Assembly (NCBI GenBank): GCA_963714085.1
Contig: OY970229.1
Location: 1,216,001 to 1,280,000 of the forward strand
Direction: 5' to 3'
Origin: an uncultured Candidatus Micrarchaeota archaeon
GTDB taxonomy: Archaea > Micrarchaeota > Micrarchaeia > Anstonellales > Bilamarchaeaceae
DNA length: 64,000 nucleotides
Below the pieces are notes generated by a model, which had not been told where the DNA came from, did no database searches, and saw nothing but the letters and a program-made list of their open reading frames with translations. Positions 18,504-34,084 of this stretch are shown in pieces (the stretch's first letter is position 1; every line of letters starts with the position of its first letter). Made by a program: the position numbers and the translations under genes.

Positions 18504-18654
18504 ATTAACACCTCTTCGGTGGGACATCCGGGCATCGCACCATAAAAGACAACTTACCCAAGTATTAAAAACCATCCGCTAACCGCACCCCGAGGGAACG
18601 CGGGCCATGGGCGATTGGAAAGCCATTAATAAATGCGGCCGCGAAAGGATTTCG

Positions 18655-19470
18655 ATGGCAAAGAAACTCGGATCCAAGATATGGGATGCTTGGGTATGGG
18701 TAGTGTCGGGCACGCTCCACATCCTCTATTCGCTGGCCAAATCAGCCGTCGGGTTGATCGGTTCCATCTTCTCCAAAGCGCGCAAGGCAGGGGAGCGCAA
18801 GGCCAGGGCGAAGTACGGCGAAGCGGTCTACCTGCCGCTCGCAGTGGAAAAAAGCATGGCAGGGGACATAACCGAATTCGAGAAGAGACTCTCGTCCAAG
18901 AGCACCGTGGGGCTGATACTCGGCGCGCGCGGAAGCGGGAAATCGGCCCTTGGCATGCGCATCTTGGAGAACATGGCGGCCAAGGGCAGGAAGGTATGCG
19001 CCATGGGTTTCGACAAATCCGCGATTCCGGGATGGATCGTGTCCGTGGACGAAGTGGACAGGATACCGAACAATCATTTCGTGCTCGTGGATGAAGGCGG
19101 GATACTCTTCTCCTCGAGATCCTCGCAGTCCTCGGGGAACAAGCTGCTCTCATCCCTCCTTTTTGTGGCCAGGCACAAGGACGTGTCCGTGCTCTTCATC
19201 TCCCAGAACTCGGCCAATCTCGAGATAAACAGCATACGGCAGGCGGACTATCTCCTGATGAGGAAGCCGTCGCTACTGCAAAAGGAGTTCGAGCGCAAGA
19301 AGATAGGCCAGATATATGACGAGATAGACTTCAGCGGCCTGCCGGACGGGGGAAAATACTCGACTTACGTGTATTCGGACGAGTTCAGGGGCTTCGTGGC
19401 GAACGGGCTCCCTGGTTTCTGGAGCGACAAGGCGAGCAAGTCCTTCGCGCAGCTGAAGCTGAAGCAGTAG
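18655..19470 (+). CDS. P-loop ATPase, Zot/FtsK-HerA-like, with hydrophobic N-terminus
   Basis: Walker A GARGSGKS, Walker B VLVDEGG, ARH..VSVLFISQ and IRQ motifs. Confidence 0.75.
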   Translation: MAKKLGSKIWDAWVWVVSGTLHILYSLAKSAVGLIGSIFSKARKAGERKARAKYGEAVYLPLAVEKSMAGDITEFEKRLSSKSTVGLILGARGSGKSALGMRILENMAAKGRKVCAMGFDKSAIPGWIVSVDEVDRIPNNHFVLVDEGGILFSSRSSQSSGNKLLSSLLFVARHKDVSVLFISQNSANLEINSIRQADYLLMRKPSLLQKEFERKKIGQIYDEIDFSGLPDGGKYSTYVYSDEFRGFVANGLPGFWSDKASKSFAQLKLKQ

Positions 19471-23456: not shown

Positions 23457-24749
23457 TCAGGGGTGCAGCCTGGTCCTGTCCCTCGGGAACAGCGTCGCGT
23501 CGCGGATGTTCTCCAGGTTGCAGATCTTCATGGTGAGCCTTTCCAGCCCTATGCCGCACCCTGCGTGCGGAGGGGCGCCCATCCTGAACGCGTTCAGATA
23601 AAACTCGAACTCCGCGGGGTCAAGGCCGCGCGAGCGCAGTGCGTCCTCGAGCATGGCCGGGTTGTGGATGCGCTTGGCACCTGAAGAAATCTCCAGCCCG
23701 CGGTAGACCAGGTCGAAGGCGTGGCATATCTTCTTGTCCTTCGGGTCCGGCATGGAGTAGAACGCGCGTATCGCGGTCGGCCAGTCGTATATGAAATACA
23801 GGTCCTCATCCATTATATCGAAGAGCTTCTTCTCGGCCTCCTTGGTGAAATCCTCGCCCCACTCCATCTTCATGCCGGCGGCGTTCAGCTTCTCCACGAG
23901 CTCGGTGTAGGAATAGCGGGGCACCTTCTCAGGGACCTCGAACTCCGGGTGCAGGGCCACTATCTCCGGGCCCATCTTGGACTTCACCTGGTCGAGTATG
24001 TGCAGCGTGACCTTCTCCAGCACGTCCATTGCGTCAAGGTGGTCAGCGAAGCCCATCTCGATGTCCATCATCACTATCTCGTTCAGGTGCGTCGTCGTGT
24101 TGTGCTTCTCGGCCCTGAACACGGGCATGGTCATGAACACCCTGTCGAAGCCGCCTATCACTGCCAGCTGCTTGTAGAGCTGCGGCGACTGCACCAGGTA
24201 GGCCTTGTTCTCGAAGTACTGTATCGGGAACACGTCCGCGCCGCCCTCGGTGGCCGCGCCGGTTATGGCGGACGGATGGATCTCCACGAATCCCAATTCG
24301 AGCAGCTTCTCCCTGAAGGCGGTCGCCACCACGGATTTTATCTTGAAAACGGAAGCGGACTCCTTCCTGCGCAGGTCCAGGTAGCGGAAGTCCATGCGCG
24401 TGTCTATCTCGCACGGCACCACGCCCGTGGGGTCCACCGGGAGCTTGCGCTCCACCTTGTTGAGCAGCCAGAACCCGTCCGGCACCATCTCCACCCCGTC
24501 CGGGGCGATCTTGTTCTCCTTCATCATGCCCTCGAAGGCAACAACGTCCTCCTTGTTCAGCGCCACCTGGGAGAGCAGCTCCTCGCTGACCACGCCCTTC
24601 TTCATGGTGACCTGGAGTATGCCGCTCCGGTCGCGTACGAGCGCGAACTTGAGCTTGCCCAGGTCGCGGAAATCGTGCACCCAGCCCGCTATTTTCACCT
24701 TCTCGCCCGCATGGGCCCTGGCATCCGCGATATAGTGAGTCCTGTCCAT
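23457..24749 (-). CDS. aspS: Archaeal aspartyl-tRNA synthetase, probably non-discriminating
   Basis: OB fold (GWVHDFRDLG), QSPQLYKQ, FRAE, GLEISSGAKRIH, GIGLERL, LFPRD; Pro in the anticodon-domain loop (KIAPDG) suggests the ND type. Confidence 0.95.
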   Translation of the reverse strand: MDRTHYIADARAHAGEKVKIAGWVHDFRDLGKLKFALVRDRSGILQVTMKKGVVSEELLSQVALNKEDVVAFEGMMKENKIAPDGVEMVPDGFWLLNKVERKLPVDPTGVVPCEIDTRMDFRYLDLRRKESASVFKIKSVVATAFREKLLELGFVEIHPSAITGAATEGGADVFPIQYFENKAYLVQSPQLYKQLAVIGGFDRVFMTMPVFRAEKHNTTTHLNEIVMMDIEMGFADHLDAMDVLEKVTLHILDQVKSKMGPEIVALHPEFEVPEKVPRYSYTELVEKLNAAGMKMEWGEDFTKEAEKKLFDIMDEDLYFIYDWPTAIRAFYSMPDPKDKKICHAFDLVYRGLEISSGAKRIHNPAMLEDALRSRGLDPAEFEFYLNAFRMGAPPHAGCGIGLERLTMKICNLENIRDATLFPRDRTRLHP

Positions 24750-24825
24750 GTGAACCAACCAGAAATGACCTGCTGTCTTCTTCTATAGGGAGCATTTTTA
24801 ATCATAATTACAGAAAGGAAGGAGC

Positions 24826-26082
24826 ATGGATCTGACCATGCCACTGCTGATCTTTCTGCCAGACACCGCCCTGGTCATGATCGGAGTCTCCCTCATGCTC
24901 AGCGTCGTCGTGACCGCGCTGTTCTACATGCTCGCCTACACGCTCCAGCACCCCCCGTTGTTCACCCTGGCCAAGGAGGAGCTCTCGGCGCTCCTCTTCA
25001 GCGTGATAATAATAGTGGCCTGGATGTCGTCGGCCAGCCTGATGGATCCCATCGCGAAGGGGCTCATCGCGCCCGTCGCGGTCCAGGTGCCGTCTCAGTC
25101 TTCGGACCTGTTCTCCTCGCACGTGACGCTTGCCATCGCCTCCACCGAGATCATGTTCAACAAGCTGCGGGAGATGTACATCTCCATGTACCTTTACGAG
25201 GCGCTCATAGGCTTCCTGTCCACGCTGAGCTTCCCCATAATATCGGCCGTGGCCGGCCCGGCCATAATCTCGTTCACCCTCATGCCCTTCGACGGCCTCA
25301 ACCTGCTCAGCAACGCGCACACCATCGTGGTCGAGGCCATAGGCACCATGATGACCCTCATCTGGGCCAAGGAGTTCATACTGATATTCTGCAGGGACGC
25401 ACTGCCGGTGCTGTTCCTCCCCCTGGGCCTCGTCATGAGGTCCATACCGTTCCTCAGGAAGACCGGCTCGTCCATAATCTCCATATGCTTCGCCGGATAC
25501 TTCGTGCTGCCCTTCGCCATCCTGTTCTCCAACTTCCTGATATTCGACGTCTACCAGCCTCCGGACTTCGTCTACGCGCCCGAGCACTTCAGCATATACA
25601 AGACGGACCTCACCGAGACCAGCGCGCAGAACGAGATAACCGGCGCGAGGGACAACGCGTCGTCCAGCCTGACCAAGCTGTTCTCCGCGCCCACCGCGGC
25701 GCAGCAGGCCACCACCACCGCGTCCTGTTCGGGCAACAGCGTCGTGCAGATGTTCTGCTCCGCGGGCAACATCGTGCGCAACATAGGCACCGGCATAGTC
25801 GACTTCGCCAGCTCGGTGTTCAACATCTGGAAGTTCATGATGGGCCTCACGGGCGATTTCGCATCCACGTTCCTGTCCGGGGCGAACCAGCTCCTGCCCG
25901 CGTCCGCTACGGCCGGGATGTTCTTCTTCATCATAGACTCCGTGGTGAGCGAGAGCCAGTTCCTGGTCCTCGTGATGATCTCCACGGTGATAGAGATAAT
26001 ATTCACCATAACCATGTACCGGAACATAGCGCTCATAATCGGAGGCGAGCTCGACATCGCGGGCCTCTCCAAGATAATCTGA
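24826..26082 (+). CDS. Polytopic membrane protein, CedA/VirB6-like array member 1
   Basis: LFYMLAYTL...AKEEL N-terminal hairpin; PLGLVMRSIPFLRKTGSSII...YFVLP core; C-terminus GGELDIAGLSKII. Confidence 0.7.
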   Translation: MDLTMPLLIFLPDTALVMIGVSLMLSVVVTALFYMLAYTLQHPPLFTLAKEELSALLFSVIIIVAWMSSASLMDPIAKGLIAPVAVQVPSQSSDLFSSHVTLAIASTEIMFNKLREMYISMYLYEALIGFLSTLSFPIISAVAGPAIISFTLMPFDGLNLLSNAHTIVVEAIGTMMTLIWAKEFILIFCRDALPVLFLPLGLVMRSIPFLRKTGSSIISICFAGYFVLPFAILFSNFLIFDVYQPPDFVYAPEHFSIYKTDLTETSAQNEITGARDNASSSLTKLFSAPTAAQQATTTASCSGNSVVQMFCSAGNIVRNIGTGIVDFASSVFNIWKFMMGLTGDFASTFLSGANQLLPASATAGMFFFIIDSVVSESQFLVLVMISTVIEIIFTITMYRNIALIIGGELDIAGLSKII

Positions 26083-26090
26083 GGTTGCAT

Positions 26091-27638
26091 ATGAGGAAGA
26101 CGCTGTTCGCCCTGCTGCTGCTGGCGCTTGCCGTCCAGGCACAGGCCGTGCCAACCACCGCGCCGCAGTCTCCGGTGTCCGTCTTCAGCTCCCAGCTGGA
26201 CGTCGCGATGGCGCTCATAGGCGCGATCATGGCCGCGCTGATAGCCCTCGCCGCGGTGGTCTACGCCGTGGGATCGCTTTTCGGGTCCGAGACGCAGGCG
26301 AGGGCGAGCGTCTGGGCCAAGTCCATGGTCAGTGCCGTGGGCGTCGCCGCGGTCCTGGTGGTCATCCTGTTCTTCTTCCTGCCCAACTACCAGCTCGCGA
26401 CCAGCGTGGATCTTGACACCATGATCGGCAGCCTCATGACCACCGCACGCGTGGTGCTGGGCGCGATACTGATGGCCCTCATCGTGCTGTCCGCCGCGAC
26501 GTACGCCCTGGGCCAGGTCGCCGGGGCGGAGACCCGTTCAAGGGCGACGGTGTGGGCCACCGGCATGCTTGCGGCCGCGCTACTGTGCGCCGTGTTATAC
26601 GTCCTGGTCTTCGTGGTGTTCACCCAGTTCGGCGACACGCTGCTGGTCGGCACCGTGCTCGAGCCCTACAAGAACATCGTGATAGACATCGCCTTCTTCG
26701 TGGCCGCCATAATACTCATCACGTACACCGCGGCCCGCGTGTTCGGGAACACGGAATGGGAGGCCTACCTGAACGTGGAGATGACCAACCTGGCCGGCTC
26801 CTTCCTGGTGCTGGTCTTCGTGCTGGGTTTCTTCGCCGCGGGCACCGTGTTCTCCACCTTGGTCATCGGCAACTCCAGCACCCCGCCGGCGGCGGCGCTG
26901 ACGTTCATGCGCCAGACCGTGGCCAGCAGCCTGCTCTCCGGGATGTACGACGTGTTCAGCATACAGACCTGCACCTCGATGCTGAGCACCTTCAGCAGGA
27001 GGTTCGGGGAAGCCGCCCTCACCAACGTGATAAAGGTGTTCCCTGGCATCAACGTCTTCGTCCAGATAACGAACGTGCTCGGCTACGGGTTCGTGACCAT
27101 CTACACCAGCGTCTCGGCGCAGATGACGGTGCTGAACCTGGTGGACGCCTTCATGGTGCCCTTCGTCCTGCCGGCCGGGCTGATACTGCGGTTCTTCCCG
27201 CCCACCCGCGACGCCGGCTCGTTCCTCATCGCCTGCGCGTTCTCGGCCCAGTTCATCTTCCCCCTGCTCTACATGATAAACTCCATGGTGCTCAGCGACC
27301 TCCAGGTCCAGGTCTACGACCAGGCGAAGTCCGCGCTCATCATAAGCTCTCTCTGCGGGCCGTTCAAGTTCGGGGTGACCGGCGTGCTGTTCCAGCCGAT
27401 CTCGAAAGGCGTCACCGCGATACCCCTGTTCTCGAACCTGCCGGGGATGGACACCCTGTTCAAGGTCATACTGTCCGAGCCCACGCTCAACATGCTGCCC
27501 ATGCTCGAGTTCGTGCCCGTGATGCAGTCCCTGGCGCTGCTGTCGCTGTTCGGGCTTTTCGTGCCCGCGTTCGCCCTGACAATGACCATAGCGTCCATAA
27601 ACGCTATAACTAAATTCCTGACTGCGAAGGTGTCATGA
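26091..27638 (+). CDS. Polytopic membrane protein, array member 2, with signal peptide and two extra pilin-like hairpins
   Basis: True start ATG 26091 (MRKTLFALLLLALAVQAQA); core PAGLILRFFPPTRDAGSFLIA...FIFP. Confidence 0.7.
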   Translation: MRKTLFALLLLALAVQAQAVPTTAPQSPVSVFSSQLDVAMALIGAIMAALIALAAVVYAVGSLFGSETQARASVWAKSMVSAVGVAAVLVVILFFFLPNYQLATSVDLDTMIGSLMTTARVVLGAILMALIVLSAATYALGQVAGAETRSRATVWATGMLAAALLCAVLYVLVFVVFTQFGDTLLVGTVLEPYKNIVIDIAFFVAAIILITYTAARVFGNTEWEAYLNVEMTNLAGSFLVLVFVLGFFAAGTVFSTLVIGNSSTPPAAALTFMRQTVASSLLSGMYDVFSIQTCTSMLSTFSRRFGEAALTNVIKVFPGINVFVQITNVLGYGFVTIYTSVSAQMTVLNLVDAFMVPFVLPAGLILRFFPPTRDAGSFLIACAFSAQFIFPLLYMINSMVLSDLQVQVYDQAKSALIISSLCGPFKFGVTGVLFQPISKGVTAIPLFSNLPGMDTLFKVILSEPTLNMLPMLEFVPVMQSLALLSLFGLFVPAFALTMTIASINAITKFLTAKVS

Positions 27639-28972
27639 TGACGACCCTAGACGTGTGGTATTCCACCTGGATCCCCCTCGCCGGGGCGGCCCTCGGGCTC
27701 GCCATCACGCTATCCGCCCTCGTCTACATGCTCGGCACGGCGCTCATGAACGACAAGATGAAGGGCTGGGCGAAGATGGAGCTGGTGGAGGCCTTCTACT
27801 CCGCGGTGATAATCGCGCTCATCGCCACTCCAGGGCTCGGCGCCCTCATGCTCGTGGACTCCGCGGTCCAGGGCGGCCTTTTCCTGAACCAGGCCAGCCC
27901 GACGGTGTTCATAGCCGAGAGGGGCATCTCCCTCCCGCTGTGCGGGGATGCCATAGCCTCGGACCCCAGTTCGATATACTACGACGTGACCGCCTGCCAC
28001 ATGCGGCTCGGCATCTGGTACCTGCACACGCTGTTCCAGGAGGAGCAGAGCCTCGCCTACAAGGACTACCTCACCTACATCTACACCTCCACACTGGCGG
28101 ACTTCACGATAAACTACGAGTTCATAACCCAGGCCGCGGGCATGTTCAGCATCACGCCCTGGAGGGGCTTCTTCACGACGGGCAACACCATAAGGAGCAT
28201 GGTGTTCGACTACCTCATCAAGCTGATGATAGTCACGAAGTTCCAGGAGGTGCTGCTCTCCTTCACAGCCACGGCCCTGTTCCCCGCGCTGTTCGTGAGC
28301 GGCGCGGTGCTGCGGACGTTCACCTTCAGCAGGCGCCTGGGCGGCCTGCTGCTCGCCATGTCGCTCGCGCTCTACTACGTGTTCCCCGCGTTCTATGCCC
28401 TGGGCGGCCTGCTGGTGTACCAGATCAAGGTCCAGATGGCGGGGGACCCGAGCTTCACGGCGATCTGCGGCCAGCTCGGGGCCAACGCCTGCAAGGACCC
28501 GCCCATCACGAACTTCATGTACGTCACCGGCCAGATCCCGCTTCCGGGGAGCAACCTGAGCACGGACGACGCGCAGGCCGCGTACAACACCCTCCAGGGG
28601 CAGACCATGGAGCAGCGGCTCAAGACCGACGAGAACGGCTCGGGCGGGTACATGGCGCTCAATTCGCAGAACGGCAACCCGGCCGCGGATTTCGCGCAGA
28701 TCCAGACCCTGGCCAACCGCGACCAGGCCATGAAAGACGCCAGCAACAAGACCAACTCCTGGTTCAACCTGGTGACCTCCTCGTCCAAGCTGGACACCAG
28801 CATCTTCAGCGCATACATGGCAGGGGGGCCGGTGGACGCGCTCGCGCGCCTCGCGTTCTTCTCCACGTTCTTCGCGCTCTTCGGCATACTCGCCACGATA
28901 GCGACAATACGATCGATCTCCGCGACGCTCGGAGGGGACCTGGAGATAGCCGGGCTCACGCACCTGATATGA
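27635..28972 (+). CDS. Polytopic membrane protein, array member 3
   Basis: LVYMLGTAL...WAKMEL; GAVLRTFTFSRRLGGLLLAMSLALYYVFP; C-terminus GGDLEIAGLTHLI; ATGA overlap with member 2. Confidence 0.7.
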   Translation: MMTTLDVWYSTWIPLAGAALGLAITLSALVYMLGTALMNDKMKGWAKMELVEAFYSAVIIALIATPGLGALMLVDSAVQGGLFLNQASPTVFIAERGISLPLCGDAIASDPSSIYYDVTACHMRLGIWYLHTLFQEEQSLAYKDYLTYIYTSTLADFTINYEFITQAAGMFSITPWRGFFTTGNTIRSMVFDYLIKLMIVTKFQEVLLSFTATALFPALFVSGAVLRTFTFSRRLGGLLLAMSLALYYVFPAFYALGGLLVYQIKVQMAGDPSFTAICGQLGANACKDPPITNFMYVTGQIPLPGSNLSTDDAQAAYNTLQGQTMEQRLKTDENGSGGYMALNSQNGNPAADFAQIQTLANRDQAMKDASNKTNSWFNLVTSSSKLDTSIFSAYMAGGPVDALARLAFFSTFFALFGILATIATIRSISATLGGDLEIAGLTHLI

Positions 28973-28976
28973 GGAT

Positions 28977-30218
28977 ATGAGGATGGACAAGAAAACGATG
29001 GTTCTCCTGGTGGCTGTTCTGCTCGTCGCCTTCGCCGGCATAGCGCTCGCGGACAGCCTCACGGACATGCTCAACACCCAGAACAGCACGCTGGCCACCG
29101 AGGGGAGCGCGTTCGTCAAGGCCACCCAGGCCGGCGTGGGCACGATACCAACCGTCTTCAACTCGGTGTTCGAGGCCTTCGATCCGGGCTTCTGCGGCAA
29201 CGACATGTTCACGGCGAACATCGGGTGGATAGAGGCTACCCTCGCCGCGCTCCTGGCGCTCGCGTTCGCGATCGCGCTGGTCTACATGCTCGGCGAGCTC
29301 ATGCAGATGCCGGGCCTGCTCGCCCTCGCCAAGGACGAGGCGGTCCAGATGCTCTACACCATCCTCAGGGTGGTCTTCATATTCGGCGTGCTCTTCGTGG
29401 CACAGACCTGGTTCACGATCCGGGTCTCGGGCAGCACCGACCCGGTGTACTCCATAACCAGCCCGGACCCGCTGAACCCCGGGGGAGCGCCCACGATCAT
29501 AGACGCGGCGATGGCGTTCTGCCGCTCCGTGATAGTCGAGATGATAACGAACTACTCCAACCTCGTGATGTACAACATGGTGATAAACACCGTGTACTCG
29601 TCCACGATGTGGTTCGGGGTCACCTGGCGCACGATGTACTCGTTCAACCTGGGCCCGGTGCTAAAGCCCCTCATAGACATCATCGGCATGGCGTTGCAGT
29701 ACCTGGGCCTGGGCATGGGCGAGTGGATGGCCCACCTGGCGATCCTCTGCCTCATAAAGAAATGGACCTGGACGATGTTCATCCCGGTGGCGATATTCAT
29801 GCGCGCGCTTCCCCAGACCCGCACCGCGGGCGAGGCGCTCTTCGCCATCACGTTCGCCCTGGCGCTGATATACCCATTCATGTTCCTGGTGACCTACGAG
29901 ACCCACAAGCTCATGAAGGGCAACCTCGTGGACAGCAGCCAGGCGCTGCAGTCGTTCGTGCAGAAATCCGGCATACTCAAGGTGGCCGGCTCGATGCTCA
30001 TAATCGTGTTCCTGGCCGCGGGCGTGTTCTTCCCGTTCTTCCTGGGCGCGGGCCTCAACATCGCCCTCGAGATGGTCAAGAGCTCGGTTTATTACGTGGT
30101 CATACTATCATTGTTGCTGCCGTTCATAAACATATTCGTGACCCTCACGGCGGCCAGGGAGTTCGCGAAGTTCTTCAACGTGGATGTGTCGTTCATGTCG
30201 TTCGTGAAAGTGATATAG
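28977..30218 (+). CDS. Polytopic membrane protein, array member 4 (signal peptide)
   Basis: LVYMLGELM...LAKDEA; PVAIFMRALPQTRTAGEALFA...IYP; C-terminus NVDVSFMSFVKVI. Confidence 0.7.
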   Translation: MRMDKKTMVLLVAVLLVAFAGIALADSLTDMLNTQNSTLATEGSAFVKATQAGVGTIPTVFNSVFEAFDPGFCGNDMFTANIGWIEATLAALLALAFAIALVYMLGELMQMPGLLALAKDEAVQMLYTILRVVFIFGVLFVAQTWFTIRVSGSTDPVYSITSPDPLNPGGAPTIIDAAMAFCRSVIVEMITNYSNLVMYNMVINTVYSSTMWFGVTWRTMYSFNLGPVLKPLIDIIGMALQYLGLGMGEWMAHLAILCLIKKWTWTMFIPVAIFMRALPQTRTAGEALFAITFALALIYPFMFLVTYETHKLMKGNLVDSSQALQSFVQKSGILKVAGSMLIIVFLAAGVFFPFFLGAGLNIALEMVKSSVYYVVILSLLLPFINIFVTLTAAREFAKFFNVDVSFMSFVKVI

Positions 30219-31298
30219 ATGCTGACCGCAGACCAGATAGTACAGAACACTGCCTGCCCCCCGTCAGCCGGGGCCTTCCAGCAGTTCCTCTGCGGCTGGC
30301 AGGGAACCATGGTGCTCGCCCTCACGGTGTCCGCGGTGTTCCTCGCGGCGTTCTACATACTGTCCGTGCTCATGAGGAACGAGGGGCTCAAGGGCTTCGT
30401 GAAGCTCGAGGTGTCGGAGCTGTTCGTGACCGTGGTGCTGGTGATGATACTCCTGGGCGCGATGGGCGCGGTCTCGGACCTCCCGTTCGGCTCCCTGGTC
30501 TCATCAAGCAAGCTGCCCGGCGTCACGGACAGCGCCAGCATCTACAACGTGACGGATACCTATTTCAATACGCTCGGCGATTTAATACCGTACTTCCTCG
30601 AGACCGATTACGTTCTGGGGGTCATGGTGGACTCCTTCGCCTCGGTGCAGTCCCAGCCCAGGCCCATGGGGGTCGGGATCGTGGCCCCGCCGTTCGCAGG
30701 GCTCGCCTCGCCCATCAAGCAGCTCCTCTACAGCATGTCCAACGCGCTCGCCATCGCGTTCGTCGTCAATTACGCGCAGCTCTACGTCTTCCTGTTCATG
30801 CTGGAGGGTTCGCTGCACTATTACATACCCCTGGGCATAATCCTGCGTTCCCTCACCCCCACGCGCAGGATAGGCGGCGCGCTGATCGGGCTCGGGGTGA
30901 GCTTCCTGTTCGTGTTCCCGGTGATATACTCGCTGACCTTCGTCATGTTCTTCGACGGGGCCGGGCCCATGGAGACCCTGCGCTCGTTCACGGAAAGCCG
31001 CTTCGACATGAGCCCGGGCGTGGGCAACCTGATAAAGAACTTCTACAGCAGCAAGGCCAACCTGGGCTTCCCGGACCTCGTGGTCTCGCTGATAGGCGAC
31101 CTGGGCAGCATGTTCGCGTCGTTCGTAGGGGAGCTGTTCACCCTGGCCATGGTGCTGCCGATAGCCGTGGTCGGCTTCGTGGGGGCCGCGGGCCTGGTAT
31201 CGGTGTTGGACATACTGCTCATGGTGCAGGTGACGTCCGCGCTCAGCAAGACCATGGGGGAGGAGGTCGACATCTCCACGTTGACGAGGATGGTCTGA
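30219..31298 (+). CDS. Polytopic membrane protein, array member 5
   Basis: FYILSVLM...FVKLEV; PLGIILRSLTPTRRIGGALIG...VFP; C-terminus GEEVDISTLTRMV. Confidence 0.7.
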   Translation: MLTADQIVQNTACPPSAGAFQQFLCGWQGTMVLALTVSAVFLAAFYILSVLMRNEGLKGFVKLEVSELFVTVVLVMILLGAMGAVSDLPFGSLVSSSKLPGVTDSASIYNVTDTYFNTLGDLIPYFLETDYVLGVMVDSFASVQSQPRPMGVGIVAPPFAGLASPIKQLLYSMSNALAIAFVVNYAQLYVFLFMLEGSLHYYIPLGIILRSLTPTRRIGGALIGLGVSFLFVFPVIYSLTFVMFFDGAGPMETLRSFTESRFDMSPGVGNLIKNFYSSKANLGFPDLVVSLIGDLGSMFASFVGELFTLAMVLPIAVVGFVGAAGLVSVLDILLMVQVTSALSKTMGEEVDISTLTRMV

Positions 31299-32396
31299 AT
31301 GGCATTCCTAGACGTTCTCTACCAGGACTGGCGTACCATCGCCGTGCTCGCCGCCGCAGGCTCGGTGCTCATCTCCATAGCCGTCATCATGCTCGCCCGC
31401 CTCTTCGACATGAAGAGCCTGGAGCAGGCCGCGAAGGCGGAGTTCGTCTATGCGGCGTCCACGGTGTTCATAGTGCTCTTCGTGGTGGGCATGATCGGGT
31501 TCGGCGACACGGTGCTCAAAAGCATCCTGGTGCAGATGTACATCAACACCATAACCGCCTGCCCGCCCGCCCAGGCCGCGGTCGCCGGCTCGCCCTGCAA
31601 CCAGCTCCAGGAGGCCGCGCCGACGCTCCAGGTCAACGTGGACACGCTGCCCGACATGATGACGCTGTACATGGACGGCCCGGCCAAATGCAGCCAGCAG
31701 TTCCTGGACTACATGTACTACGCGGCGATCCCGATAGACGCCTGCTCCTCGGTGTACATGGAAGTGTACATGTCCGAGCAGCTCACATGCTGGGGCCTCA
31801 AATGGGCGTCCGAGCGCATCACCAACGGGGTCCAGATACTCACGTTCTACATGTTCGCCTACTACCTCATCGGCCACGCGATGCAGTTCGTCAAGTACTA
31901 CGCGGGCTTCTTCTTCTCCCTGGGCGTGGCCCTGCGCGCGTTCCCGCCCAGTCGTGGCGGCGGCGCCTATCTCATGGCGCTGGCGGTCGGATTGTACTTC
32001 GTGCTGCCCTTCAGCTACGTGCTGATATCCAGCATGGCCATGTCCTACACGCAGTCCAACTTCTTCGCGGCGACCGGCACGACCCAGACCCCGACCGGCT
32101 CGACCATACAGTACGCGTGCAACACGCCCGCCATCGGCGACGTGACCGGCCTGGGCTGCGGCACCGGCTCCATGGCCAAGCAGGGGGAGCTCATGGGCTG
32201 GCTCACGGCGAGCAAGACCAACATCACGGACTTCTTCACCTTCCAGCTGCCCGCGCTCACGCAGCAGATGGCCTCGGTGATGTGCATATTCCCGTTCATA
32301 GCGTTCGCCATCTTCTTCACCTTCGTGCTCAACACCACGAGCCTTTTCGGAGGCAACATACCCGAGATAGGGCGCGGCCTCGTGAAACTCATCTGA
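31299..32396 (+). CDS. Polytopic membrane protein, array member 6
   Basis: IMLARLF...AAKAEF; SLGVALRAFPPSRGGGAYLMALAVGLYFVLP; C-terminus GGNIPEIGRGLVKLI. Confidence 0.7.
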   Translation: MAFLDVLYQDWRTIAVLAAAGSVLISIAVIMLARLFDMKSLEQAAKAEFVYAASTVFIVLFVVGMIGFGDTVLKSILVQMYINTITACPPAQAAVAGSPCNQLQEAAPTLQVNVDTLPDMMTLYMDGPAKCSQQFLDYMYYAAIPIDACSSVYMEVYMSEQLTCWGLKWASERITNGVQILTFYMFAYYLIGHAMQFVKYYAGFFFSLGVALRAFPPSRGGGAYLMALAVGLYFVLPFSYVLISSMAMSYTQSNFFAATGTTQTPTGSTIQYACNTPAIGDVTGLGCGTGSMAKQGELMGWLTASKTNITDFFTFQLPALTQQMASVMCIFPFIAFAIFFTFVLNTTSLFGGNIPEIGRGLVKLI

Positions 32397-32445: not shown

Positions 32446-33024
32446 ATGCCGACCACCAGGTTCGTAATCGACACGTCCCTTTTCGTGAACCCATACGCCA
32501 GGGGGAAGTTCGGCAAGGACCCGCCCTCGGCGGTCACCGGCTTCATCAGGATGGCGAAGAAGGTGGACGCCCAGTTCTACATGCCCCCCTCGGTGTTCAA
32601 CGAGCTCAAGAACTTCATAGGCGCGAAATCGGACGACCTGGCGCTGCACGTGAAGAAGCGCGCCCCCAACACGTTCGCGCTCCCGCTCCCGGCGGCGGTG
32701 TTCTACGACTTCATAGACGACGTCCGCTCGCGGGTGAACAAGGGGCTGAGGCTCGCGGAGGACTTCGCGAAAGACAACCATCCGGACAACGACGCCAAGC
32801 TCGGGAAGCTGCGGGAGAAGTACCGCGAGAGCATGCGGACCGGCATAATAGACAGCAAGGAGGACCTGGAGCTCGTGCTCCTGGCCAAGGAGCTGGAGGC
32901 CACGCTGGTGACATCCGACGAGGGGGTCATCAAGTTCGCGAACAAGATAGGGTGCGAGTGCCTCGAGGGCGACAAGTTCCACGGATTATTGAAGACGCTC
33001 GCCAAGAAGAGAGCTAATCAGTGA
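32446..33024 (+). CDS. HARP, RNA-free RNase P ('RNA ligase partner', PIN_5 domain)
   Basis: FVIDTS, YMPPSV..EL, R.RVNKGLRLAE, LREKYR...R.GIIDS.ED, LAKEL...VTSDEG. Confidence 0.9.
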   Translation: MPTTRFVIDTSLFVNPYARGKFGKDPPSAVTGFIRMAKKVDAQFYMPPSVFNELKNFIGAKSDDLALHVKKRAPNTFALPLPAAVFYDFIDDVRSRVNKGLRLAEDFAKDNHPDNDAKLGKLREKYRESMRTGIIDSKEDLELVLLAKELEATLVTSDEGVIKFANKIGCECLEGDKFHGLLKTLAKKRANQ

Positions 33025-34084
33025 CCGACTTTCCGCCCAGCGCGTCGTGCAATGTTTTCGTGGTCTTCTTGTATATCTTCCTGAAGCGGATGCGCTTCCC
33101 GCCTTTTTCGTCCCGGTTGGAGATTATGTCGAGCTTCACCTCCTTGGACATATGGCGGTGTATCGTCTCCCAGGTCCCCGGGTCCCTGACGAATATCTCG
33201 AACTCCGCCTCGGATTCGCGGCCGGCCTCGACCTTCTCCAGGGCCCCCGTGAGGCCGGAATAGAACGCCTCCCCCAGGCGCTTCGCGTATTCCCCCCTGT
33301 CCAGGCCGAACTCCCTGATGAACATGCCCGAGCGGAACACCCGCTGCAAATAGAACCCCAAAGGCATGTCGAATAGCAATGGCGAGCCCTTCTCTATGTC
33401 CTCTATGTCAGCGTTCGGGGTCACGAACTTCACCGCGGCCTTCCTGTCCGGGGTCTTTATCACCATGCCCTCCTTCTTCGCCTTGTTGAGCGAGAGCGCG
33501 AGATTGCGGATCTTGTTGATGTCAGCGACCCTGTATCTGCCCAGCGCAGGTACGCTCTGGATGCCGTATCTCTTCAGGATCGCGTAGCGCTCCCCGCACG
33601 GGAGGTAGACGCCGCTGCCGTCGTCTATGTCGAATACGAAGAGCTTCACGTCGAATCTGTCCGTCGGTTCGGTGTACGGCGTGTTGCCGATCATCTCCCC
33701 GCATAGTATGCCTTCCGGGTAATCCTTGAAGAACCGCTCCAACCCCAGGTCCCGCGCCTTCTCGGTCGAGAAGGCATCGATATAGCCGCCCCTGGAGAAC
33801 GCGAAGATCCTCCCCTCCACCTTCGCGACGCGCAGGTTGAAGCCGTCTATCTTCTCCTCTATGTAGACCTCTCCGCTTTCGATATTGCGGCCCAGCCCCT
33901 TTTCCAGCGTGAATATCCTGGGGATGTGCTCGTAGCCCGGGATGACCCTGCTTTTGGTGACCACGGTGCCGCGCATGATCCTGCGGTCGGTGTCCCGGAA
34001 GCGCACGTACTCTATGTCCTCCTTGAGCTTCTCCGCCCTGCCCCTTTTTATGGCATCGAGGACCTGCTGCCTGGTGGGTTGCAT
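33014..34084 (-). CDS. ATP-dependent RNA ligase, archaeal Rnl3 (Pab1020) family
   Basis: Motif I EEKIDGFNLR, SRGG, LCGEM, FVFDI, EGMVIK, K.VT. Confidence 0.9.
   Translation of the reverse strand: MQPTRQQVLDAIKRGRAEKLKEDIEYVRFRDTDRRIMRGTVVTKSRVIPGYEHIPRIFTLEKGLGRNIESGEVYIEEKIDGFNLRVAKVEGRIFAFSRGGYIDAFSTEKARDLGLERFFKDYPEGILCGEMIGNTPYTEPTDRFDVKLFVFDIDDGSGVYLPCGERYAILKRYGIQSVPALGRYRVADINKIRNLALSLNKAKKEGMVIKTPDRKAAVKFVTPNADIEDIEKGSPLLFDMPLGFYLQRVFRSGMFIREFGLDRGEYAKRLGEAFYSGLTGALEKVEAGRESEAEFEIFVRDPGTWETIHRHMSKEVKLDIISNRDEKGGKRIRFRKIYKKTTKTLHDALGGKSVTD

Follow-up and report, generated by a model that had tools for sequence, protein, structure and literature searches.

How archaea of the DPANN group make contact with other cells, and draw on them, is an open question. 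It is raised in a specific form by a 64,000-nucleotide stretch of an uncultured Candidatus Micrarchaeota genome (contig OY970229.1 of assembly GCA_963714085.1, positions 1,216,001 to 1,280,000; hereafter the window), in which six related membrane-protein genes follow one another at 24826-32396. What would a cell build from six versions of one protein? A first-pass annotation, made from the letters alone, had seen in them a CedA/VirB6-like array belonging to a cell-contact or DNA-transfer apparatus. The array is real, ancient and chromosomal. From comparison of sequences, it appears probable that its products, six anciently diverged five-helix paralogues, come together, in the manner of VirB6/CedA, as the base of a type IV secretion-like machine encoded on the chromosome, one that would build a VirB2-type pilus and likely act as a cell-to-cell conduit.

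Six paralogues with one topology

The six genes are co-oriented on the plus strand, with intergenic gaps of 8, -4, 4, 0 and 0 nucleotides, as the first-pass annotation had described them. In a library scan the upstream neighbour scored as a class II tRNA synthetase (Asp/Lys/Asn) and the downstream one as a PIN_5 RNase; we take these genes to be aspS and HARP, respectively. The mutual homology suspected earlier is confirmed. Thirteen of the 15 gene pairs outscore all 400 shuffled controls, the shuffles preserving local hydropathy (the exceptions are g1-g6 and g3-g4, the genes being numbered g1 to g6 in order), and all six proteins match one family profile at E ≤ 1e-58, a profile that was itself built with them. 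The motifs listed in the annotation are likewise recovered: the hairpin Glu and the core R..R..G..P (Arg, Arg, Gly, Pro) are invariant in an alignment of 12 paralogues of this genome, with the strict core pattern in five of the six genes (in g4 the G is replaced by A) and the strict YML..AK.E hairpin pattern in three. The C-terminal tail, said to mark five of six, is absent from g2 alone, and the cysteines placed in extracellular loops (2-8 per protein) are indeed enriched in predicted outside segments.

Each subunit is predicted to have five membrane helices. Among 129 family members Lys and Arg are frequent (12-21%) in the tail and in the loops of hairpin and core, but scarce (2-5%) in the N-terminus, the variable loop and the helical stalk of 100 residues. 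Under the positive-inside rule, this suggests that the conserved motifs face the cytoplasm and the stalk faces the outside.

None of the six proteins scores above any curated Pfam or NCBIfam cut-off, so a known transporter family, the alternative that the annotation had named, does not come into view. The best E-value of the 129 members to any NCBIfam model is 2.5e-4. A search of the genome-contig collection with g5 alone returned no relative. All named homologues among the matches listed are Micrarchaeota hypothetical proteins without Pfam domains; 3,753 representatives at 50% identity carry no organism names, and the genome survey described below covered Micrarchaeota. A complex prediction for g4, g6 and g5 from 50-row alignments scored 0.00, which counts neither for nor against binding.

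A shared operon with pilins and a VirB4-like ATPase

The array-protein family profile matches 178 of 201 Micrarchaeota genomes (at most about ten candidates were scored per genome, so that matches are not copy numbers). A VirB4/CedB-like ATPase profile matches 177 of them, all within the array-protein-positive set, and the two tallies per taxonomic family are identical but for one genome of family f10. The 201 genomes include kin and hence are not independent. Each of the 37 other genomes in the window's own taxonomic family gives two or three ATPase matches, and the majority of those outside its order give one.

Loci were fetched around top hits, not at random. In 98 of 102 the six genes stand in order, the remaining four being truncated where the contig or the locus ends. 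Families f10 and f11 have them in one operon in 13 of 14 loci; it runs from one or more pilins through a gene for a 244-amino-acid (aa) membrane protein, the six array genes, two PrgI-like genes and the ATPase to a conserved tail. In family f12 three of four loci read pilins, six genes, PrgI-like, ATPase, and the fourth is cut by a contig end. The ATPase, whose scores lie below VirB4-family cut-offs and which is unlinked in the window's genome, is thus tied to the array by a common operon in 16 of 18 loci of three families and by co-occurrence in 177 of 178 genomes. The operon pilins match Pfam T4SS_pilin in 13 of 26 cases and TrbC/VirB2 in 12 of 26 at E ≤ 0.1 (best E 1.3e-7), which identifies them as VirB2/TrbC-type pilins. 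The PrgI/TrsD-like genes match weakly (4 of 33 members to CedB and 1 of 33 to a VirB4, best E 2e-4); their Atlas neighbours are TraC-like/PrgI at 0.80-0.81, a lead only.

Two further observations concern the ATPase genes and their surroundings. At one locus (L092, genome G194) the operon ATPase is split over three frames (247, 180 and 86 aa), by a frameshift or an assembly error. A conserved gene of 234-266 aa lies 3' of the ATPase (L217:7372-8169, minus strand, and orthologues), with a C-terminal coiled coil, a winged-helix-like tail and weak EAP30/PCI matches; it is a candidate substrate or DNA adaptor.

Pilin units fused to array subunits

Subunit 2 of the window array is longer than the others because a signal peptide and two pilin-like units precede its core (Table 1). 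With extra pilin units called at a 20-bit threshold, 21 of the 39 arrays of the window's type within its own family carry such units ahead of a subunit core. The fusion is on subunit 2 in 17 arrays from three genera, all adjoining aspS (two units were detected in 15, and one unit in two proteins of equal length), on subunit 1 in three arrays, on subunit 6 in two and on subunit 4 in one; two arrays have two fused subunits. No fusion was found in 63 other arrays, of which 26 are of the same type outside the family, 17 of a second type and 20 of others. Since four different subunits are fused, at least four fusion events are likely to have occurred. The fused units preserve the free-pilin motif. 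Their own genome's pilins rank first for only 2 of 31 units, which led us to reject concerted evolution between fused and free pilins. The fusions are independent evidence that the array works with pilins, although the pilin genes lie far from it.

Pilin-profile matches were also seen within longer frames (708, 727, 369 and 283 aa) outside arrays, at G136:C3:351222-353622, G178:C5:1131-1379 and G070:C17:20002-20295. These may be further fusions or simply long open frames.

Arrays, ATPase modules and pilins of the window's genome

The genome (1.57 Mb, one contig) holds 13 array-protein family genes: the window array, a second six-gene array and a singleton. The second array, at C1 669904-677450 (L001), lies beside giant surface proteins, being followed by a 1,533-aa cysteine-rich one and faced by a protein of about 1,100 aa. 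Position 3 of this second type carries large outside insertions, giving proteins of 574-1,380 aa in 17 arrays.

The pilin and VirB4-like genes that the annotation had suggested looking for elsewhere in the genome are present. ATPase module 1, at C1 470821-477148, lies about 760 kb from the window array and comprises, in order, a PrgI-like gene, the ATPase gene and genes for proteins of 156, 266 and 844 aa. Module 2, at C1 778903-783762 (L002), consists, in order, of the singleton, a PrgI-like gene, the ATPase gene and one for a 234-aa protein, interrupted by one unrelated gene; it is a minimal Ced-like module, possibly a separate one-subunit machine. In about 15 relatives (L108-L177) module 2 is preceded by a short pilin, mostly of 81 aa, without an evident signal peptide. 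Three pilins with signal peptides (read by eye) are encoded at C1 1144782-1148202 and a short one at C1 889987-890235 (L222). Both ATPases have CedB as their best NCBIfam match, followed by CD1110-type VirB4, well below cut-offs; with CedB scores of 98.5 and 79.3 bits against a cut-off of 700 they fall outside the CedB family. Walker A/B are intact in the ATPase family consensus. At L121, L129, L143, L164 and L172 the module-2 ATPase frame is 994-1,025 aa long and the match starts at residue 70-71, just past Walker A, an arrangement that resembles an intein insertion.

Two other loci of this genome stand apart from these modules. An 823-aa multi-helix membrane ATPase (G000:C1:223747-226218, L218; best match CedB) was rejected as a core coupling protein, as it occurs in 16 of 201 genomes and in 0 of the 37 of the own family. 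It is otherwise confined to families f10 and f11 and so was probably acquired sideways. A separate VirB4 with two Pfam-grade pilins at G000:C1:293780-299540 (L004) lies on a probable mobile element, in which the array-protein profile finds no member.

The scatter of parts in this genome bears on a reading that grants common ancestry but makes of the window array an ATPase-independent or non-transporting attachment structure, the fused pilins and variable outside loops forming a static adhesion plug while transport is left to the other array or the singleton. The window array stands apart from every ATPase gene, 13 family genes face two ATPase modules of which one is tied to the singleton, and fused pilins could not exit the membrane unless cleaved. 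The confinement of fusions to this array type and the rarity with which own-genome pilins rank first for the fused units fit a plug as well. However, the inside loops that would face the ATPase, and the tail, retain the family's invariant residues, fusion-free arrays of this type are intact in 44 other loci, and families with a single operon keep all parts together. We consider a plug unlikely.

Six ancient positions

The age of the array was judged from a midpoint-rooted FastTree phylogeny built from 229 rows and 289 columns, which covers 38 arrays and includes no clade test. Here each of positions 1, 2 and 5 is a single clade across all 38 arrays, with support of 0.72, 0.93 and 0.98, respectively; positions 3, 4 and 6 split into two or three pure clades, mainly as f10/f11 branch apart. 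It follows from the positional clades that the six paralogues predate the sampled families, the window's taxonomic order having two whole arrays. Recent tandem amplification was rejected on the same ground. The window's array type is defined by profile score together with leuS/aspS and HARP flanks, and is not monophyletic in every subunit tree.

Nor is there sign of carriage by a mobile element. The flanks are core genes (aspS or leuS, HARP), codon usage is host-like, at the 92nd-98th percentile of a genome-trained model, and a tblastn search of 72,556 plasmids gave no match to the array. G+C content at third codon positions is 0.89-0.92, against a genome median of 0.82. Together with the positional clades, this indicates vertical inheritance and sustains the annotation's argument, from codons and from placement between aspS and HARP, that the array is not a recent import.

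The positional clades also tell against a receptor-like repertoire, in which the six paralogues would be alternative single-subunit platforms, that is, six homo-oligomers with different partners or cargos. Such a repertoire would accord with the homopentameric VirB6 of R388 (PMC9259494), with outside loops that vary greatly in length and with the tandem VirB6 paralogues kept by Rickettsiales (PMC7648143). It should, however, gain and lose copies, whereas the six stand in fixed order in 98 of 98 complete loci, and the stops and starts of the array genes overlap or abut. It therefore seems a slightly poorer candidate still than the adhesion plug.

Relation to CedA and VirB6

The CedA profile (NF041796) gives 78 matches at E ≤ 0.01 in 65 of the 201 genomes. 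All 48 of those within fetched loci are array-protein family members, matched at the stalk-to-core segment, and no match occurs in taxonomic families where the array was not found. In the window's own genome the sole match is a second-array gene (14.6 bits). When 129 members were scanned against NCBIfam, CedA (3 members) and CedE (2 members) had the best E-values. These weak but specific matches argue for remote homology of the core to CedA/CedE. Bearing weakly on a likeness of the N-terminal region to the pilin, one neighbour cluster in Atlas has CedA1 in 23% of its members (score 0.90). The CedA1 pilin profile NF041797 finds nothing in the genome, and the main pilins have signal peptides (by eye), which speaks against a CedA1-type pilin.

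Structural comparison is consistent with this. For the AlphaFold model of g5, R388 VirB6 (TrwI) ranks first of 48,161 chains (VIA Z 10.2, root-mean-square deviation (rmsd) 6.0, 240 residues aligned) and DotA third (Z 8.6, rmsd 9.2, 293 aligned); for that of g4, DotA ranks fourth (Z 8.1, rmsd 7.5, 273 aligned). With either model, VirB6 and DotA align over more residues than any other chain of the top ten (240/293 for g5, 254/273 for g4). The modelled fold similarity to VirB6 is suggestive.

A number of observations weigh against a VirB6/CedA-like pilus machine. In the solved structure the VirB6 ring is homopentameric rather than hexameric (PMC9259494). None of the window's six proteins is matched by the CedA, CedE, CedA1 or TrbL/VirB6 profiles, the CedE, CedA1 and TrbL models matching no array-protein gene of this genome at all, and the best CedA score among the 201 genomes, 27.9 bits, is far from the cut-off of 330 that would make the proteins members of the CedA family. 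The better model, g4, ranks VirB6 only tenth (Z 7.5, rmsd 6.7, 254 aligned), behind a designed protein and glutathione transferases. Both Z values (10.2 and 7.5) are below the tool's mark of about 13 for helical proteins, and Foldseek E-values to VirB6 (0.24 and 1.1) are not significant. Searched against PDB sequences, the family profile has 0 matches and the pilin profile finds no solved pilin, only a chance match to KdpA. Alignment of the pilin with the hairpin profile (hhalign) is weak (probability 43%, E 2.4e-4), and no Pfam pilin model matches the three free pilins with signal peptides that this genome encodes. Lastly, the window array is unlinked to any ATPase, and two arrays and a singleton face two ATPase modules, so that their pairing is conjectural.

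The link to CedA/VirB6 thus rests on gene context and on weak, specific profile matches, with structures that are consistent but not significant. Of the first-pass identification, the likeness to CedA has the support of the 48 of 48 CedA-profile matches, weak as they are; the fold similarity to VirB6 stays below significance. Non-significant fold scores and the absence of any library family above cut-off might also be taken for an unrelated six-subunit envelope complex, for example a Mce-like lipid or nutrient importer (mce operons resemble a fixed set of six tandem paralogues) that is like VirB6 in its long helical hairpins only, but this is very improbable, as it leaves unexplained the operon and co-occurrence with pilins and a VirB4-like ATPase, the specificity of the CedA matches and the repeated pilin fusions.

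A proposed machine

The window array likely supplies the platform, set in the membrane, for a type IV secretion-like machine that has been domesticated and lacks a relaxase; its hetero-oligomer, cargo and direction are what we infer. One copy each of the six subunits would form a ring, a proposal based on their fixed number, fixed order and coupled reading frames. The ring would be driven by ATPase module 1 (C1 470821-477148) and use the three signal-peptide pilins (C1 1144782-1148202). The split VirB4, with its PrgI/TrsD-like anchors, would dock on the conserved inside loops and drive these pilins from the membrane into the pilus. VirB6 helix 1 is the proposed VirB2 recruitment site in R388 (PMC9259494). 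The fused units would sit at the corresponding place, and so are proposed to serve the pilus as primer or anchor subunits that come covalently pre-loaded. With membrane topology preserved, fusion at the N-terminus would keep the pilin at the recruitment site.

Among the genes conserved in the operon neither a relaxase nor a coupling protein could be recognised (the whole genome was not searched for relaxases), which makes self-transfer unlikely. By analogy with Ced, the single most likely cargo of such a machine would be nucleic acid taken up from a contacted cell, though this falls somewhat short of an even chance. Contact alone, or protein export, would each be less likely again, and about equally so. 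Genes presumably for purine, pyrimidine and lipid synthesis are apparently encoded by this genome (read by eye), so that a symbiotic, strictly host-dependent life is, for this organism, an assumption drawn from its phylum.

A broader view, which we hold only tentatively and which is doubtful as a whole, would be that a third kind of domesticated archaeal type IV secretion system (T4SS), passed on vertically, is present throughout the Micrarchaeota, with an obligate base ring of six different subunits, an apparatus to tap or dock other cells. In one family pilins would then have been repeatedly welded onto ring subunits at the loading site, marking the seats at which pilus assembly starts.

Features of the window

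The array genes, the parts of g2 and the flanking genes are collected in Table 1.

Table 1. Array genes, fused pilin units and flanking genes (window coordinates; fused units scored against a profile of 26 free pilins)
Feature	Position	Strand	Description
Subunit 1 (g1)	24826..26082	+	418 aa; hairpin resembling a pilin, then a long helical stalk on the outside, the hairpin with the core motif G..LR..P..R..G, a variable loop outside, the final helix and a tail inside
Subunit 2 (g2)	26091..27638	+	515 aa; signal peptide, two fused pilin units, family core; no C-terminal tail
g2 predicted signal peptide	26091..26147	+	ends A-Q-A; read by eye from the sequence
g2 fused pilin unit 1	26148..26384	+	27 bits, E 1.5e-10; 33% identity over 93 aa to a free pilin of the same genome
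g2 fused pilin unit 2	26412..26630	+	34 bits, E 1.4e-12; 38% identity over 103 aa to a free pilin of the same genome; retains the GAETR.RA.VWA motif of free pilins
Subunit 3 (g3)	27635..28972	+	445 aa; N-terminal hairpin (27671-27826) a weak Pfam T4SS_pilin match, E 0.017 genome-wide, below cut-off
Subunit 4 (g4)	28977..30218	+	413 aa; predicted signal peptide; AlphaFold model of residues 51-413, pLDDT 85.6
Subunit 5 (g5)	30219..31298	+	359 aa; AlphaFold model pLDDT 72.5; best structural match TrwI/VirB6
Subunit 6 (g6)	31299..32396	+	365 aa; 8 cysteines
Class II aminoacyl-tRNA synthetase (aspS)	23457..24758	-	flank, outside the machine; divergent from the array; adjoins all 17 arrays with pilins fused to subunit 2
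PIN_5 ribonuclease (HARP)	32446..33024	+	flank, outside the machine; common 3' neighbour of this array type in its own taxonomic family

A scan of the array for sigma-70-type promoters and terminators gave nothing useful, the models being ill-suited to archaea. Convergent with HARP is a Pab1020-type RNA ligase (33014-34084, minus strand), which is present in 13 of the clustered loci. A small P-loop ATPase with weak Zot/STAND matches lies at 18607-19470 on the plus strand. From 42001 to 64000 the G+C content is 0.39-0.53, against about 0.58-0.63 before it, with long frames of 902, 665, 674 and 939 aa; this segment is a probable acquired island.

Implications

In a search that covered mostly papers available without subscription, we found no published description of the six-gene array or of the pilin fusions. 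Cryo-tomography of a Micrarchaeon has revealed a 21-nm envelope barrel where host tubes dock, whose proteins are unidentified; VirB, Ced and pilin terms do not figure in the main text of that paper (PMC11329633). The gene set described here supplies concrete candidates, namely six platform subunits, a pilin and a split ATPase, in 178 of 201 sampled genomes. They can be sought in proteomes and tomograms of existing co-cultures, a link to the barrel being a possibility only. If real, a base ring built of six distinct VirB6-like proteins would overturn the view of the T4SS base as a five-fold homopentamer, and the natural pilin-platform fusions offer a ready test of the pilin loading site.

Comparison with known systems

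The closest archaeal counterparts are Ced (CedA, CedE, CedA1, CedA2, CedB and CedD of Sulfolobales/Desulfurococcales), which imports DNA (PMC11823120, PMC11868833), and Ted (TedA, TedB and TedC of Thermoproteales). Like these, the Micrarchaeota system is chromosomal and combines a pilin, a VirB6-like membrane protein and a VirB4-like ATPase. CedA, CedE and CedB are the best NCBIfam matches. CedE has five helices, as has the array-protein core (PMC11868833), and the signal-peptide pilins recall TedC. The CedA N-terminus has been found homologous to its pilin by Beltran et al. (PMC9905601); the array proteins, too, may open with a pilin-like hairpin, for which the hhalign comparison and the g3 match give weak support. 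The annotation's remark that CedA is typically single-copy needs qualification, since Saccharolobus has the paralogue CedE (PMC11868833).

The differences are nonetheless considerable. There are six fixed paralogues here instead of one or two, and scores are far below cut-offs. The ATPase is split from its N-terminal part and accompanied by two PrgI/TrsD-like membrane genes, four extra conserved unnamed genes are present, whole pilin units are fused to subunits, and no conserved CedD-like second ATPase was found among the genes compared. Induction by DNA damage and one-way import of DNA are traits of Ced. With neither the cut-offs nor the pilin type of Ced, the array machine is not a Ced member, though it would work like Ced/Ted.

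R388 TrwI/VirB6 and Legionella DotA give the longest structural alignments and, like the array proteins, continue from an N-terminal membrane hairpin into a long helical stalk on the outside. In contrast, R388 VirB6 is a homopentamer capped by VirB5 (PMC9259494), no VirB5 or VirB7-10 was seen here, and the likeness, at an rmsd of 6-9 Å, is below significance. In Rickettsiales, a host-dependent lineage, several chromosomal VirB6 paralogues are kept, all of them expressed and some with very large extensions; they number four in Anaplasma, however, and belong to a full Gram-negative T4SS that secretes effectors (PMC7648143). An independent origin is presumed. Among archaea, nanohaloarchaeal VirB4-like giants have been proposed as effector exporters (PMC10266531).

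A further parallel lies in the Patescibacteria (CPR), whose chromosomal T4SS, of MPF-FATA ancestry, is likewise lineage-wide, mostly relaxase-less and borne by small genomes, with VirB4, TrsD, PrgI/VirB3, VirB6 and VirB2-like pilins (PMC12102498). It differs in being bacterial, and the portions of that report consulted mention no six-paralogue array; conversely, neither VirB8 nor a coupling protein was identified in the Micrarchaeota system. In one patescibacterial strain, components of the T4SS are essential for epibiotic growth (PMC12102498).

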